From: Escherichia phage T7
DNA length: 37,681 bases
Reading direction: 5' to 3' (one strand)
Sequence record: MZ375246.1
Part shown: positions 369-34,236 of the stretch, piece by piece
Layout of the letters: every line of letters starts with the position of its first letter
Numbering within the stretch: the first letter of the stretch is position 1
Notes under the pieces: model-generated
What the model was told of the DNA's origin: nothing
What the model saw: the letters and a program-made list of their open reading frames with translations, nothing else
The model's database searches: none
Made by a program: the position numbers and the translations under genes

Positions 369-391
369 TAATACAACTCACTATAGGGAGA
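369..391 (+). promoter_or_regulatory. T7 RNA polymerase promoter phiOL
   Basis: taatacaactcactatagggaga; one mismatch to the 23-bp consensus (A at -11); position matches T7 phiOL. Confidence 0.8.
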
Positions 392-442
392 GACAACTTA
401 AAGAGACTTAAAAGATTAATTTAAAATTTATCAAAAAGAGTA

Positions 443-480
443 TTGACTTAAAGTCTAACCTATAGGATACTTACAGCCAT
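443..480 (+). promoter_or_regulatory. E. coli RNA polymerase early promoter A1
   Basis: ttgact (-35, 443..448), 17-bp spacer, gatact (-10, 466..471); matches T7 A1. Confidence 0.85.
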
Positions 481-569
481 CGAGAGGGACACGGCGAATA
501 GCCATCCCAATCGACACCGGGGTCAACCGGATAAGTAGACAGCCTGATAAGTCGCACGAAAAACAGGTA

Positions 570-608
570 TTGACAACATGAAGTAACATGCAGTAAGATA
601 CAAATCGC
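570..608 (+). promoter_or_regulatory. E. coli RNA polymerase early promoter A2
   Basis: ttgaca -35 at 570..575 and taagat -10 at 594..599; matches T7 A2. Confidence 0.8.
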
Positions 609-694
609 TAGGTAACACTAGCAGCGTCAACCGGGCGCACAGTGCCTTCTAGGTGACTTAAGCGCACCACGGCACATAAGGTGAAACAAAACGG

Positions 695-732
695 TTGACA
701 ACATGAAGTAAACACGGTACGATGTACCACAT
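695..732 (+). promoter_or_regulatory. E. coli RNA polymerase early promoter A3
   Basis: ttgaca -35 at 695..700 and tacgat -10 at 718..723; matches T7 A3. Confidence 0.8.
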
Positions 733-2588: not shown

Positions 2589-5240
2589 ATGAACACGATT
2601 AACATCGCTAAGAACGACTTCTCTGACATCGAACTGGCTGCTATCCCGTTCAACACTCTGGCTGACCATTACGGTGAGCGTTTAGCTCGCGAACAGTTGG
2701 CCCTTGAGCATGAGTCTTACGAGATGGGTGAAGCACGCTTCCGCAAGATGTTTGAGCGTCAACTTAAAGCTGGTGAGGTTGCGGATAACGCTGCCGCCAA
2801 GCCTCTCATCACTACCCTACTCCCTAAGATGATTGCACGCATCAACGACTGGTTTGAGGAAGTGAAAGCTAAGCGCGGCAAGCGCCCGACAGCCTTCCAG
2901 TTCCTGCAAGAAATCAAGCCGGAAGCCGTAGCGTACATCACCATTAAGACCACTCTGGCTTGCCTAACCAGTGCTGACAATACAACCGTTCAGGCTGTAG
3001 CAAGCGCAATCGGTCGGGCCATTGAGGACGAGGCTCGCTTCGGTCGTATCCGTGACCTTGAAGCTAAGCACTTCAAGAAAAACGTTGAGGAACAACTCAA
3101 CAAGCGCGTAGGGCACGTCTACAAGAAAGCATTTATGCGAGTTGTCGAGGCTGACATGCTCTCTAAGGGTCTACTCGGTGGCGAGGCGTGGTCTTCGTGG
3201 CATAAGGAAGACTCTATTCATGTAGGAGTACGCTGCATCGAGATGCTCATTGAGTCAACCGGAATGGTTAGCTTACACCGCCAAAATGCTGGCGTAGTAG
3301 GTCAAGACTCTGAGACTATCGAACTCGCACCTGAATACGCTGAGGCTATCGCAACCCGTGCAGGTGCGCTGGCTGGCATCTCTCCGATGTTCCAACCTTG
3401 CGTAGTTCCTCCTAAGCCGTGGACTGGCATTACTGGTGGTGGCTATTGGGCTAACGGTCGTCGTCCTCTGGCGCTGGTGCGTACTCACAGTAAGAAAGCA
3501 CTGATGCGCTACGAAGACGTTTACATGCCTGAGGTGTACAAAGCGATTAACATTGCGCAAAACACCGCATGGAAAATCAACAAGAAAGTCCTAGCGGTCG
3601 CCAACGTAATCACCAAGTGGAAGCATTGTCCGGTCGAGGACATCCCTGCGATTGAGCGTGAAGAACTCCCGATGAAACCGGAAGACATCGACATGAATCC
3701 TGAGGCTCTCACCGCGTGGAAACGTGCTGCCGCTGCTGTGTACCGCAAGGACAAGGCTCGCAAGTCTCGCCGTATCAGCCTTGAGTTCATGCTTGAGCAA
3801 GCCAATAAGTTTGCTAACCATAAGGCCATCTGGTTCCCTTACAACATGGACTGGCGCGGTCGTGTTTACGCTGTGTCAATGTTCAACCCGCAAGGTAACG
3901 ATATGACCAAAGGACTGCTTACGCTGGCGAAAGGTAAACCAATCGGTAAGGAAGGTTACTACTGGCTGAAAATCCACGGTGCAAACTGTGCGGGTGTCGA
4001 TAAGGTTCCGTTCCCTGAGCGCATCAAGTTCATTGAGGAAAACCACGAGAACATCATGGCTTGCGCTAAGTCTCCACTGGAGAACACTTGGTGGGCTGAG
4101 CAAGATTCTCCGTTCTGCTTCCTTGCGTTCTGCTTTGAGTACGCTGGGGTACAGCACCACGGCCTGAGCTATAACTGCTCCCTTCCGCTGGCGTTTGACG
4201 GGTCTTGCTCTGGCATCCAGCACTTCTCCGCGATGCTCCGAGATGAGGTAGGTGGTCGCGCGGTTAACTTGCTTCCTAGTGAAACCGTTCAGGACATCTA
4301 CGGGATTGTTGCTAAGAAAGTCAACGAGATTCTACAAGCAGACGCAATCAATGGGACCGATAACGAAGTAGTTACCGTGACCGATGAGAACACTGGTGAA
4401 ATCTCTGAGAAAGTCAAGCTGGGCACTAAGGCACTGGCTGGTCAATGGCTGGCTTACGGTGTTACTCGCAGTGTGACTAAGCGTTCAGTCATGACGCTAG
4501 CTTACGGGTCCAAAGAGTTCGGCTTCCGTCAACAAGTGCTGGAAGATACCATTCAGCCAGCTATTGATTCCGGCAAGGGTCTGATGTTCACTCAGCCGAA
4601 TCAGGCTGCTGGATACATGGCTAAGCTGATTTGGGAATCTGTGAGCGTGACGGTGGTAGCTGCGGTTGAAGCAATGAACTGGCTTAAGTCTGCTGCTAAG
4701 CTGCTGGCTGCTGAGGTCAAAGATAAGAAGACTGGAGAGATTCTTCGCAAGCGTTGCGCTGTGCATTGGGTAACTCCTGATGGTTTCCCTGTGTGGCAGG
4801 AATACAAGAAGCCTATTCAGACGCGCTTGAACCTGATGTTCCTCGGTCAGTTCCGCTTACAGCCTACCATTAACACCAACAAAGATAGCGAGATTGATGC
4901 ACACAAACAGGAGTCTGGTATCGCTCCTAACTTTGTACACAGCCAAGACGGTAGCCACCTTCGTAAGACTGTAGTGTGGGCACACGAGAAGTACGGAATC
5001 GAATCTTTTGCACTGATTCACGACTCCTTCGGTACCATTCCGGCTGACGCTGCGAACCTGTTCAAAGCAGTGCGCGAAACTATGGTTGACACATATGAGT
5101 CTTGTGATGTACTGGCTGATTTCTACGACCAGTTCGCTGACCAGTTGCACGAGTCTCAATTGGACAAAATGCCAGCACTTCCGGCTAAAGGTAACTTGAA
5201 CCTCCGTGACATCTTAGAGTCGGACTTCGCGTTCGCGTAA
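2589..5240 (+). CDS. 1: T7 RNA polymerase (gene 1), single-subunit DNA-dependent RNA polymerase
   Basis: 883-aa ORF MNTINIAKNDFSDIELAAIPFNTLADHYG...DFAFA. Confidence 0.99.
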   Translation: MNTINIAKNDFSDIELAAIPFNTLADHYGERLAREQLALEHESYEMGEARFRKMFERQLKAGEVADNAAAKPLITTLLPKMIARINDWFEEVKAKRGKRPTAFQFLQEIKPEAVAYITIKTTLACLTSADNTTVQAVASAIGRAIEDEARFGRIRDLEAKHFKKNVEEQLNKRVGHVYKKAFMRVVEADMLSKGLLGGEAWSSWHKEDSIHVGVRCIEMLIESTGMVSLHRQNAGVVGQDSETIELAPEYAEAIATRAGALAGISPMFQPCVVPPKPWTGITGGGYWANGRRPLALVRTHSKKALMRYEDVYMPEVYKAINIAQNTAWKINKKVLAVANVITKWKHCPVEDIPAIEREELPMKPEDIDMNPEALTAWKRAAAAVYRKDKARKSRRISLEFMLEQANKFANHKAIWFPYNMDWRGRVYAVSMFNPQGNDMTKGLLTLAKGKPIGKEGYYWLKIHGANCAGVDKVPFPERIKFIEENHENIMACAKSPLENTWWAEQDSPFCFLAFCFEYAGVQHHGLSYNCSLPLAFDGSCSGIQHFSAMLRDEVGGRAVNLLPSETVQDIYGIVAKKVNEILQADAINGTDNEVVTVTDENTGEISEKVKLGTKALAGQWLAYGVTRSVTKRSVMTLAYGSKEFGFRQQVLEDTIQPAIDSGKGLMFTQPNQAAGYMAKLIWESVSVTVVAAVEAMNWLKSAAKLLAAEVKDKKTGEILRKRCAVHWVTPDGFPVWQEYKKPIQTRLNLMFLGQFRLQPTINTNKDSEIDAHKQESGIAPNFVHSQDGSHLRKTVVWAHEKYGIESFALIHDSFGTIPADAANLFKAVRETMVDTYESCDVLADFYDQFADQLHESQLDKMPALPAKGNLNLRDILESDFAFA

Positions 5241-5248
5241 CGCCAAAT

Positions 5249-7010: not shown

Positions 7011-7022
7011 ATAAGGAGACAC

Positions 7023-7045
7023 TTTTACGACTCACTAAAGGAGGT
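7023..7045 (+). promoter_or_regulatory. T7 promoter phi1.5, altered at -16/-15 by the upstream deletion junction
   Basis: ttttacgactcactaaaggaggt; consensus TAAT at -17..-14 reads tttt here. Confidence 0.7.
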
Positions 7046-7052
7046 ACACACC

Positions 7053-7428: not shown

Positions 7429-8010
7429 TGGGACTGTTAGATGGTGAAGCCTGGGAAAAAGAAAACCCGCCAGTACAAGCAACTGGGTGTATAGCTTGCT
7501 TAGAGAAAGATGACCGTTATCCACACACCTGTAACAAAGGAGCTAACGATATGACCGAACGTGAACAAGAGATGATCATTAAGTTGATAGACAATAATGA
7601 AGGTCGCCCAGATGATTTGAATGGCTGCGGTATTCTCTGCTCCAATGTCCCTTGCCACCTCTGCCCCGCAAATAACGATCAAAAGATAACCTTAGGTGAA
7701 ATCCGAGCGATGGACCCACGTAAACCACATCTGAATAAACCTGAGGTAACTCCTACAGATGACCAGCCTTCCGCTGAGACAATCGAAGGTGTCACTAAGC
7801 CTTCCCACTACATGCTGTTTGACGACATTGAGGCTATCGAAGTGATTGCTCGTTCAATGACCGTTGAGCAGTTCAAGGGATACTGCTTCGGTAACATCTT
7901 AAAGTACAGACTACGTGCTGGTAAGAAGTCAGAGTTAGCGTACTTAGAGAAAGACCTAGCGAAAGCAGACTTCTATAAAGAACTCTTTGAGAAACATAAG
8001 GATAAATGTT

Positions 8011-10423: not shown

Positions 10424-12235
<1,812 letters not shown>

Positions 12236-12303: not shown

Positions 12304-14418
12304 ATGATCGTTTCTGACATCGAAGCTAACGCCCTCTTAGAGAGCGTCACTAAGTTCCACTGCGGGGTTATCTACGACTACTCCACCGCTGAGTACGTAA
12401 GCTACCGTCCGAGTGACTTCGGTGCGTATCTGGATGCGCTGGAAGCCGAGGTTGCACGAGGCGGTCTTATTGTGTTCCACAACGGTCACAAGTATGACGT
12501 TCCTGCATTGACCAAACTGGCAAAGTTGCAATTGAACCGAGAGTTCCACCTTCCTCGTGAGAACTGTATTGACACCCTTGTGTTGTCACGTTTGATTCAT
12601 TCCAACCTCAAGGACACCGATATGGGTCTTCTGCGTTCCGGCAAGTTGCCCGGAAAACGCTTTGGGTCTCACGCTTTGGAGGCGTGGGGTTATCGCTTAG
12701 GCGAGATGAAGGGTGAATACAAAGACGACTTTAAGCGTATGCTTGAAGAGCAGGGTGAAGAATACGTTGACGGAATGGAGTGGTGGAACTTCAACGAAGA
12801 GATGATGGACTATAACGTTCAGGACGTTGTGGTAACTAAAGCTCTCCTTGAGAAGCTACTCTCTGACAAACATTACTTCCCTCCTGAGATTGACTTTACG
12901 GACGTAGGATACACTACGTTCTGGTCAGAATCCCTTGAGGCCGTTGACATTGAACATCGTGCTGCATGGCTGCTCGCTAAACAAGAGCGCAACGGGTTCC
13001 CGTTTGACACAAAAGCAATCGAAGAGTTGTACGTAGAGTTAGCTGCTCGCCGCTCTGAGTTGCTCCGTAAATTGACCGAAACGTTCGGCTCGTGGTATCA
13101 GCCTAAAGGTGGCACTGAGATGTTCTGCCATCCGCGAACAGGTAAGCCACTACCTAAATACCCTCGCATTAAGACACCTAAAGTTGGTGGTATCTTTAAG
13201 AAGCCTAAGAACAAGGCACAGCGAGAAGGCCGTGAGCCTTGCGAACTTGATACCCGCGAGTACGTTGCTGGTGCTCCTTACACCCCAGTTGAACATGTTG
13301 TGTTTAACCCTTCGTCTCGTGACCACATTCAGAAGAAACTCCAAGAGGCTGGGTGGGTCCCGACCAAGTACACCGATAAGGGTGCTCCTGTGGTGGACGA
13401 TGAGGTACTCGAAGGAGTACGTGTAGATGACCCTGAGAAGCAAGCCGCTATCGACCTCATTAAAGAGTACTTGATGATTCAGAAGCGAATCGGACAGTCT
13501 GCTGAGGGAGACAAAGCATGGCTTCGTTATGTTGCTGAGGATGGTAAGATTCATGGTTCTGTTAACCCTAATGGAGCAGTTACGGGTCGTGCGACCCATG
13601 CGTTCCCAAACCTTGCGCAAATTCCGGGTGTACGTTCTCCTTATGGAGAGCAGTGTCGCGCTGCTTTTGGCGCTGAGCACCATTTGGATGGGATAACTGG
13701 TAAGCCTTGGGTTCAGGCTGGCATCGACGCATCCGGTCTTGAGCTACGCTGCTTGGCTCACTTCATGGCTCGCTTTGATAACGGCGAGTACGCTCACGAG
13801 ATTCTTAACGGCGACATCCACACTAAGAACCAGATAGCTGCTGAACTACCTACCCGAGATAACGCTAAGACGTTCATCTATGGGTTCCTCTATGGTGCTG
13901 GTGATGAGAAGATTGGACAGATTGTTGGTGCTGGTAAAGAGCGCGGTAAGGAACTCAAGAAGAAATTCCTTGAGAACACCCCCGCGATTGCAGCACTCCG
14001 CGAGTCTATCCAACAGACACTTGTCGAGTCCTCTCAATGGGTAGCTGGTGAGCAACAAGTCAAGTGGAAACGCCGCTGGATTAAAGGTCTGGATGGTCGT
14101 AAGGTACACGTTCGTAGTCCTCACGCTGCCTTGAATACCCTACTGCAATCTGCTGGTGCTCTCATCTGCAAACTGTGGATTATCAAGACCGAAGAGATGC
14201 TCGTAGAGAAAGGCTTGAAGCATGGCTGGGATGGGGACTTTGCGTACATGGCATGGGTACATGATGAAATCCAAGTAGGCTGCCGTACCGAAGAGATTGC
14301 TCAGGTGGTCATTGAGACCGCACAAGAAGCGATGCGCTGGGTTGGAGACCACTGGAACTTCCGGTGTCTTCTGGATACCGAAGGTAAGATGGGTCCTAAT
14401 TGGGCGATTTGCCACTGA
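12304..14418 (+). CDS. 5: DNA polymerase (gene 5)
   Basis: 704-aa [30 protein letters not shown]... Confidence 0.99.
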
Positions 14419-32574: not shown

Positions 32575-34236
32575 ATGGCTAACGTAATTAAAACCGTTTT
32601 GACTTACCAGTTAGATGGCTCCAATCGTGATTTTAATATCCCGTTTGAGTATCTAGCCCGTAAGTTCGTAGTGGTAACTCTTATTGGTGTAGACCGAAAG
32701 GTCCTTACGATTAATACAGACTATCGCTTTGCTACACGTACTACTATCTCTCTGACAAAGGCTTGGGGTCCAGCCGATGGCTACACGACCATCGAGTTAC
32801 GTCGAGTAACCTCCACTACCGACCGATTGGTTGACTTTACGGATGGTTCAATCCTCCGCGCGTATGACCTTAACGTCGCTCAGATTCAAACGATGCACGT
32901 AGCGGAAGAGGCCCGTGACCTCACTACGGATACTATCGGTGTCAATAACGATGGTCACTTGGATGCTCGTGGTCGTCGAATTGTGAACCTAGCGAACGCC
33001 GTGGATGACCGCGATGCTGTTCCGTTTGGTCAACTAAAGACCATGAACCAGAACTCATGGCAAGCACGTAATGAAGCCTTACAGTTCCGTAATGAGGCTG
33101 AGACTTTCAGAAACCAAGCGGAGGGCTTTAAGAACGAGTCCAGTACCAACGCTACGAACACAAAGCAGTGGCGCGATGAGACCAAGGGTTTCCGAGACGA
33201 AGCCAAGCGGTTCGAGAATACGGCTGGTCAATACGCTACATCTGCTGGGAACTCTGCTTCCGCTGCGCATCAATCTGAGGTAAACGCTGAGAACTCTGCC
33301 ACAGCATCCGCTAACTCTGCTCATTTGGCAGAACAGCAAGCAGACCGTGCGGAACGTGAGGCAGACAAGCTGGAAAATTACAATGGATTGGCTGGTGCAA
33401 TTGATAAGGTAGATGGAACCAATGTGTACTGGAAAGGAAATATTCACGCTAACGGGCGCCTTTACATGACCACAAACGGTTTTGACTGTGGCCAGTATCA
33501 ACAGTTCTTTGGTGGTGTCACTAATCGTTACTCTGTCATGGAGTGGGGAGATGAGAACGGATGGCTGATGTATGTTCAACGTAGAGAGTGGACAACAGCG
33601 ATAGGCGGTAACATCCAGTTAGTAGTAAACGGACAGATCATCACCCAAGGTGGAGCCATGACCGGTCAGCTAAAATTGCAGAATGGGCATGTTCTTCAAT
33701 TAGAGTCCGCATCCGACAAGGCGCACTATATTCTATCTAAAGATGGTAACAGGAATAACTGGTACATTGGTAGAGGGTCAGATAACAACAATGACTGTAC
33801 CTTCCACTCCTATGTACATGGTACGACCTTAACACTCAAGCAGGACTATGCAGTAGTTAACAAACACTTCCACGTAGGTCAGGCCGTTGTGGCCACTGAT
33901 GGTAATATTCAAGGTACTAAGTGGGGAGGTAAATGGCTGGATGCTTACCTACGTGACAGCTTCGTTGCGAAGTCCAAGGCGTGGACTCAGGTGTGGTCTG
34001 GTAGTGCTGGCGGTGGGGTAAGTGTGACTGTTTCACAGGATCTCCGCTTCCGCAATATCTGGATTAAGTGTGCCAACAACTCTTGGAACTTCTTCCGTAC
34101 TGGCCCCGATGGAATCTACTTCATAGCCTCTGATGGTGGATGGTTACGATTCCAAATACACTCCAACGGTCTCGGATTCAAGAATATTGCAGACAGTCGT
34201 TCAGTACCTAATGCAATCATGGTGGAGAACGAGTAA
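32575..34236 (+). CDS. 17: Tail fiber protein (gene 17)
   Basis: 553-aa ORF MANVIKTVLTYQLDGSNRDFNIPFEYLARKF... Confidence 0.98.
   Translation: MANVIKTVLTYQLDGSNRDFNIPFEYLARKFVVVTLIGVDRKVLTINTDYRFATRTTISLTKAWGPADGYTTIELRRVTSTTDRLVDFTDGSILRAYDLNVAQIQTMHVAEEARDLTTDTIGVNNDGHLDARGRRIVNLANAVDDRDAVPFGQLKTMNQNSWQARNEALQFRNEAETFRNQAEGFKNESSTNATNTKQWRDETKGFRDEAKRFENTAGQYATSAGNSASAAHQSEVNAENSATASANSAHLAEQQADRAEREADKLENYNGLAGAIDKVDGTNVYWKGNIHANGRLYMTTNGFDCGQYQQFFGGVTNRYSVMEWGDENGWLMYVQRREWTTAIGGNIQLVVNGQIITQGGAMTGQLKLQNGHVLQLESASDKAHYILSKDGNRNNWYIGRGSDNNNDCTFHSYVHGTTLTLKQDYAVVNKHFHVGQAVVATDGNIQGTKWGGKWLDAYLRDSFVAKSKAWTQVWSGSAGGGVSVTVSQDLRFRNIWIKCANNSWNFFRTGPDGIYFIASDGGWLRFQIHSNGLGFKNIADSRSVPNAIMVENE

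Follow-up and report, generated by a model that had tools for sequence, protein, structure and literature searches.

The phiOL locus and its +1 base

The DNA analysed here, referred to below as the window, is a stretch of 37,681 nucleotides from Escherichia phage T7 (MZ375246.1), and close to its left end lies phiOL, the leftmost promoter of the T7 RNA polymerase (Table 1). The promoter is flanked on the left by the terminal repeat and CCTAAAG-type repeats, and on the right by the host promoters A1-A3. Colinear alignment with positions 1-520 of V01146 places it at the orthologous position of reference T7, with an offset of 19 that comprises a missing first base and the loss of 18 bp from the terminal repeat. 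The genome also encodes, in gene 1, the single-subunit RNA polymerase cognate to this promoter. The predicted start site was taken from the annotations 'T7 promoter phiOL' at 405 in V01146 and 'phiOL mRNA start site' in T7.1. When the window was scanned with the 23-bp T7 consensus, allowing up to three mismatches and assessing significance from shuffles of the window, 10 promoter matches were observed against 0 expected.

Table 1. Coordinates of phiOL and neighbouring features in the window
Feature	Position	Strand	Description
phiOL, leftmost T7 RNA polymerase promoter	369..391	+	-17 to +6, mutant allele TAATACAACTCACTATAGGGAGA
phiOL -11	375..375	+	A (consensus G); sole non-consensus position left; reference 394; G in 10 related clones
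phiOL +1	386..386	+	G in window, A in reference T7 (A405G); from alignment and whole-genome comparison
AT-rich stretch directly 3' of phiOL	392..445	+	54 bp, 79.6% A+T against 51.5% in the whole window
A1, A2 and A3 (early promoters, host sigma-70), 3' of phiOL	443..723	+	promoter-like sites 443-471, 570-599 and 695-723
Gene 1, T7 RNA polymerase (user of phiOL)	2589..5240	+	MZ375254 CDS 2590-5241, annotated RNA polymerase; window offset 1

Consistent with the reading in the initial annotation that phiOL departs from consensus at -11 alone, the consensus scan matched 22 of its 23 positions to the class III consensus TAATACGACTCACTATAGGGAGA. The same annotation had suggested that the wild-type promoter might lie further from consensus around +1/+2, and had named alignment to reference phiOL as the check and identity of the two sites as the outcome that would speak against it. 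The suggestion proved sound. Reference phiOL (V01146, 388-410) reads TAATACAACTCACTATAAGGAGA and is off consensus at both -11 and +1, the base at 405 (+1) being A, and alignment leaves A405G as its single difference from the window. The first six transcribed positions are thus GGGAGA in the window versus AGGAGA in V01146, through one A>G transition, and the +1 change in phiOL is confirmed as a genuine one-base substitution. From -10 to +6 the promoter now equals the class III consensus; that class, of strong late promoters, is defined by agreement at all 23 positions, and the A at -11 keeps the window's phiOL outside it, whereas the phiOL of the sibling MZ375250 falls within.

Alignment with the reference shows 392-445 to be the same as wild type, and the three host promoter-like sites correspond to the A1, A2 and A3 starts at 498, 626 and 750 of V01146. 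An overlapping coding function at phiOL was considered and rejected: across 300-520 there are only mechanical ORFs of 20-44 aa, none of which is annotated in T7.

Elsewhere, the window differs from reference T7 by 12 SNPs, six of which are A>G, the commonest class, and by five internal deletions (reference 1341-1903, 7608-7763, 11254-11545, 13265-14283 and 39420-39608). Among the T7 promoters of the window, phiOL alone carries a point change, and phi2.5 retains its A start. Several further differences were recorded in passing. The deletion of gene 1.4 (reference 7608-7763) is precise, and removes positions -17 to -15 of phi1.5 to leave ...TTTACGACTCACTAAAGGAGGT (window 7021-7046), while the 13265-14283 deletion removes phi4.3 and phi4.7 entirely. 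Gene 1 carries Q184R (window 3139, reference A3721G), which is common to MZ375254 and lies 9 nt from an AGG PAM, and the silent change L637L (window 4499, reference G5081A), which is confined to the window and absent from MZ375254. Both terminal-repeat copies lack the same 18 bp, GGGTTGGGGATGACCCTT (window 97/98 and 37637/37638; reference 99-116 and 39876-39893). This deletion sits between GGGTT direct repeats and, judged from record offsets, is found with either phiOL allele across the clone series.

Distribution of phiOL alleles in a passage lineage and in natural relatives

The window equals none of the phage records compared. Save for eight base differences, it is identical to positions 2-37682 of MZ375254.1 ('Mutant Escherichia phage T7 clone T7_110S'); five of these are sites at which the window is wild type, and at the other three its base is unique. 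The window is therefore a genome-reduced, laboratory-evolved T7, either a clone of T7_110S or a near-sibling, or another version of the deposit. Yuan et al. 2022 (PMC9825161) describe the iterative reduction of the T7 genome by CRISPR-Cas9 with homology cassettes and serial passage, in which 60 clones were sequenced, sampled at intervals of 10 transfers up to 300, about 60 point mutations in all were reported for T7, and the T7 mutants were mostly less fit than wild type. The MZ375 clones are named by transfer number followed by L (large plaque) or S (small plaque), and because this naming matches the design of PMC9825161 we infer that the MZ375 series represents the passages of that study, whose main text contains no occurrence of the term 'phiOL'.

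To describe the distribution of the allele, a phage collection was queried with 41-mers centred on +1, such that the megablast seed had to span the variant. The wild-type combination of -11A and +1A was found in 55 records, comprising all T7 records outside the MZ375/OL9647 series (among them V01146, NC_001604, AY264774-8, GU071091, LR7457xx, PP3843xx and PV2238xx) together with early clones of the line (MZ375233-236, 238, 239 and 244) and five OL9647xx records. The window's combination, -11A with +1G, occurs in 43 records, all of them MZ375. A further 10 (nine MZ375 and OL964739) combine -11G with +1G and so have the perfect class III 23-mer, examples being MZ375250 at 369-391 and OL964739 at 371-393. 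One record each adds to +1G either an A>G change at +8 (MZ375262, clone 150S, 370-400), after which phiOL matches phi17 through +9, or the pair -17 T>G and -27 T>G (MZ375287, clone 280L, 362-394). Counted together, 55 separately assembled records have +1G.

Accession order in the series follows transfer number, as confirmed on clones 30L, 90S, 110S, 150S and 280L, and this allows the alleles to be followed through the passages. The first four clones (10L to 20S) lack +1G, which is earliest in 30L, is mixed with A through 60S (six of the nine collection records of the 30L-70L range have it), and is observed in every clone from 70L on (49 clones; 48/48 records from MZ375247 to MZ375294). A405G arose in the passage line by about transfer 30. 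The -11G/+1G combination was seen from about transfer 90 to transfer 250 without sweeping, and had gone from the last clones.

Beyond the laboratory line, 18 Teseptimavirus phiOL orthologues were collected from IMG/VR and GenBank. Seven of these have the -11A/+1A state (T7, Yanou, vB_Yep_15, CQ615, Pila, C5 and one UViG) and two have -11G/+1A (3A_8767 and NC-A). The exact 23-mer of the window, with -11A and +1G, is found in three (CICC 80001, 64795_ec1 and one UViG), and six more start with G and have -11G or another variant (PHB19, JacobBurckhardt, phiA1122, N30, pO111 and HZ2R8). Since 9/18 natural orthologues have +1G, the mutant state of phiOL is within natural variation and clearly viable.

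Two other groups of changes were noted in this lineage. The motif ATCTGTT at reference 161-167, which directly follows the 160-bp terminal repeat and is the sole + strand copy in T7, is a strictly conserved class II pause and termination motif of the T7 RNA polymerase at the concatemer junction, where termination is reportedly abolished by 'any base change'. A161C (window 142, motif 142-148) alters its first base, giving CTCTGTT. This substitution is present in 34 records (33 MZ375 and OL964741), all from the same group's series and including nearly all of the late clones, and occurs with both phiOL alleles; it is perhaps of greater interest than A405G. In gp16, the window has H740R (window 30764, reference 32813) and R806C (window 30961, reference 33010), in place of which MZ375254 has G809S (30971, reference 33019). 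These residues lie near G737D, I754T and E761K, gp16 substitutions that permit transcription-independent genome entry. In one SpCas9 target (GCGTATGACCGCCGTGTCAA-TGG), reference 33010 is seed position 8 and reference 33019 falls in the GG of the PAM, and the changes there look like alternative Cas9-escape alleles, which is the simpler reading. We considered and set aside the use of the gp16 changes as an independent sign of selection on entry, which is unsafe with 33010 and 33019 inside a single Cas9 target.

Promoter strength and the case for selection

T7 RNA polymerase melts its promoter from -4 to +3 and holds the initiating GTP through specific contacts to guanine. The enzyme strongly prefers to initiate with GTP, and substitutions in the initiation region alter initiation more than binding (PMC11617373). 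In the S2 entries for a barcoded in vitro library (Komura 2018, PMC5937735), the consensus promoter scores 169 +/- 19 and its +1 G>A variant 68.0, or about 40%, the latter value being a single barcode on a -11G background; -17 T>G on the consensus background is likewise placed at about 40% in those entries. Because a consensus promoter with +1A gives about 40% of the +1G activity in this assay, A405G is likely to be a modest promoter-up change, of about two- to three-fold, with the -11A defect remaining. The size of the +1 effect is context-dependent, since yields from the A-initiating phi2.5 can resemble those of class III promoters in vitro (Coleman 2004, as relayed in PMC3683919).

The explanation that best accounts for these observations, and that we consider likely, is a genuine +1 transition in a T7_110S-like passage clone that raised initiation at phiOL. 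Replacement of AGGAGA by GGGAGA would raise productive initiation about two- to three-fold through the GTP preference of the polymerase, taking phiOL from a weak, doubly non-consensus promoter to a singly non-consensus one. Additional rightward transcription by T7 RNA polymerase would then run from the extreme left end of the genome across the early region, including gene 1. This may speed the polymerase-driven pull-in of genomes entering cells that already contain T7 RNA polymerase, increase T7-RNAP expression of early genes and, possibly, raise promoter-dependent origin activity at the left end.

Any of these downstream effects might have been the one selected. The initial annotation had this promoter contributing to genome entry driven by T7 RNA polymerase, and that is the role cited for it in the relevant statement of PMC6171733, with reference to Garcia & Molineux 1995; the same paper regards phiOL as weakly used. 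During normal infection, however, the first ~1 kb enters through a gp15/gp16-dependent step and the next ~6 kb is drawn in by host RNA polymerase, ~7 kb in total (PMC6042481). Because the host polymerase normally pulls in the early DNA, a benefit to entry would fall mainly to genomes entering cells that contain T7 RNA polymerase, for example at high multiplicity. The benefit could equally lie in transcription of the early genes or of gene 1, or in promoter-dependent origin activity. A T7 secondary origin consists of a T7 RNAP promoter with an AT-rich region after it, at which DNA synthesis starts. Every T7 origin needs a T7 promoter (PMC8373140), and the A+T content of 392-445 suggests that phiOL may possibly act as an origin; the secondary origins named in PMC8373140 are phiOR and phi6.5, not phiOL.

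Direct selection for A405G is plausible. Four different changes in the phiOL region occur in one clone series, two of them being exactly the consensus-restoring substitutions, and a rough, post hoc estimate puts at 2.5e-7 the chance that 60 random substitutions would include both of these. Such numbers are set against a reading that we judge unlikely and nonetheless take seriously, in which the transition is neutral or almost so, matters little to the biology of the phage, and spread through one passaged population by hitch-hiking on Cas9-escape mutations or on deletions that were beneficial. Hitch-hiking would suit data drawn from a single lineage, and A405G fits the background mutation spectrum because half of the SNPs in the window are A>G. 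It is also in keeping with the weak use of phiOL described above, with the even division of natural relatives between +1A and +1G (9:9), which suggests weak constraint, and with the -11G/+1G double mutant never having swept. Since the perfect-consensus allele did not sweep, the notion that a stronger phiOL is always better is unsupported, and the -17 T>G of the late clone 280L points away from consensus. The same reading is less easily reconciled with so many changes around one promoter in a study with so few T7 point mutations, or with a loss of about 60% of activity for +1A in vitro (PMC5937735, S2 entries). Linkage to A161C has, moreover, been broken: although the two sites are only 244 bp apart, all four haplotypes exist in the MZ375 series (A161C/A405G: 233 A/A, 237 A/G, 244 C/A and 240 C/G), and recombination or recurrence must therefore have uncoupled them, which weakens simple hitch-hiking.

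Three other accounts were weighed. In the first, which bears on origin alone and would leave the function the same, gene conversion (ectopic recombination) from one of the class III promoters of perfect sequence, and not point mutation, supplied the +1G. Six identical consensus 23-mers are available in the genome as donors, the consensus-ward changes at +1 and -11 both match them, the A>G at +8 of MZ375262 reproduces phi17, and recombination between short repeats was active in these phages, as in the 18-bp deletion between GGGTT repeats. Conversion nonetheless appears improbable to us, for the change at +1 came without one at -11, which would limit the flanking homology to about 10 nt leftward and 5-6 nt rightward, every step amounts to one A>G transition, the commonest class here, and there is no co-converted flanking marker to prove a tract. 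The suggestion that A405G is a CRISPR-Cas9 escape mutation, having destroyed a protospacer or PAM, draws on the report that about 23.5% of T7 point mutations lie in spacer or PAM regions (PMC9825161) and on other SNPs of the window that do fit this origin, such as the gene 16 positions 33010/33019 in the seed and PAM of one target. It is very improbable for phiOL and is effectively refuted by enumeration of PAMs and protospacers: no NGG protospacer, whichever strand is read, includes position 405, and this base provides only the N of a PAM, AGG at 405-407, which the mutation preserves as GGG while making a new one. The spacers were, in addition, aimed at genes (PMC9825161), whereas phiOL is intergenic. 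Finally, an artefact of sequencing or assembly, for instance through consensus-promoter reads misassigned to phiOL, is scarcely credible. The 16-mer ACTCACTATAGGGAGA is indeed repeated six times elsewhere in the genome; against this, the allele is shared by 55 separately assembled records, the earliest clones of this study and every other T7 record lack it, the retained -11A distinguishes phiOL from a collapsed copy of the consensus, and phiOL is flanked by unique sequence.

Raised initiation following a point transition at +1 can be extended into a broader scenario, which we put forward as distinctly doubtful. Here, the strengthening of phiOL, by +1 A>G and then -11 A>G in some clones, would be a repeatable adaptive route during prolonged serial passage with phage at high density. 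phiOL would enter the cell first and, where T7 RNA polymerase is already present and host RNA polymerase is shut off, would provide the sole pull-in for late-arriving genomes to replicate and recombine; a trade-off would keep phiOL weak in nature, and A161C would reflect the same readjustment of T7 RNA polymerase traffic over the left end.

phiOL, the preference of T7 RNA polymerase for a G start and the distinction between class II and class III promoters are textbook matters, and with the allele both public and natural the change carries little weight for basic biology. The A405G phiOL is real, probably functional, already public in 55 records and naturally present in relatives. Its modest value lies in marking the window as laboratory-evolved, genome-reduced T7, not wild type, and in adding a non-coding regulatory change that is absent from the main text of the source paper (PMC9825161). 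Taken together, +1G, -11G, +8G, -17G and A161C suggest that the left-end signals for T7 RNA polymerase were evolving in that experiment. Users of these reduced T7 chassis should allow for a phiOL, and possibly a junction pause site, that is no longer wild type.

Comparison with known promoters and phage lines

Wild-type T7 phiOL (V01146/NC_001604) is the closest counterpart of the window's promoter, with the same locus, strand and flanks, the same -11A, and 22/23 bases shared; it differs in its +1 A and AGGAGA start, where the window has G and GGGAGA. The class III promoters phi6.5, phi9, phi10, phi13, phi17 and phiOR are identical to the window's phiOL from -10 to +6 and differ from it in having G at -11, where the window keeps A. 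Together with wild-type phiOL, the class II promoter phi2.5 makes up the only pair of T7 promoters with +1A, an illustration that T7 RNA polymerase can start with ATP. The phi2.5 promoter has -1T/+1A on a -11G background, and it has kept its A start in the window while phiOL has lost its own.

Among natural phages, CICC 80001 (KM242061) and 64795_ec1 (KU927499) share the window's 23-mer, TAATACAACTCACTATAGGGAGA, exactly, and their left-end context is the same. In those phages it is a natural allele in a diverged genome, with flanks 82-85% identical to T7, whereas the window's copy is a new mutation within a laboratory line of T7. A further parallel is provided by the T7 lines of the Bull laboratory with an RNA polymerase of altered specificity (PMC6171733), in which phiOL was mutated and duplicated in four of four lines, changes that the authors interpret as restoring genome entry driven by T7 RNA polymerase. 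Those changes fall in the recognition triplet at -11 to -9 and answer a changed polymerase; the window's change, by contrast, is at +1, and the specificity region of its polymerase is not known to be altered. The Bull-laboratory lines can nonetheless be seen as a precedent for phiOL as a target of experimental evolution.
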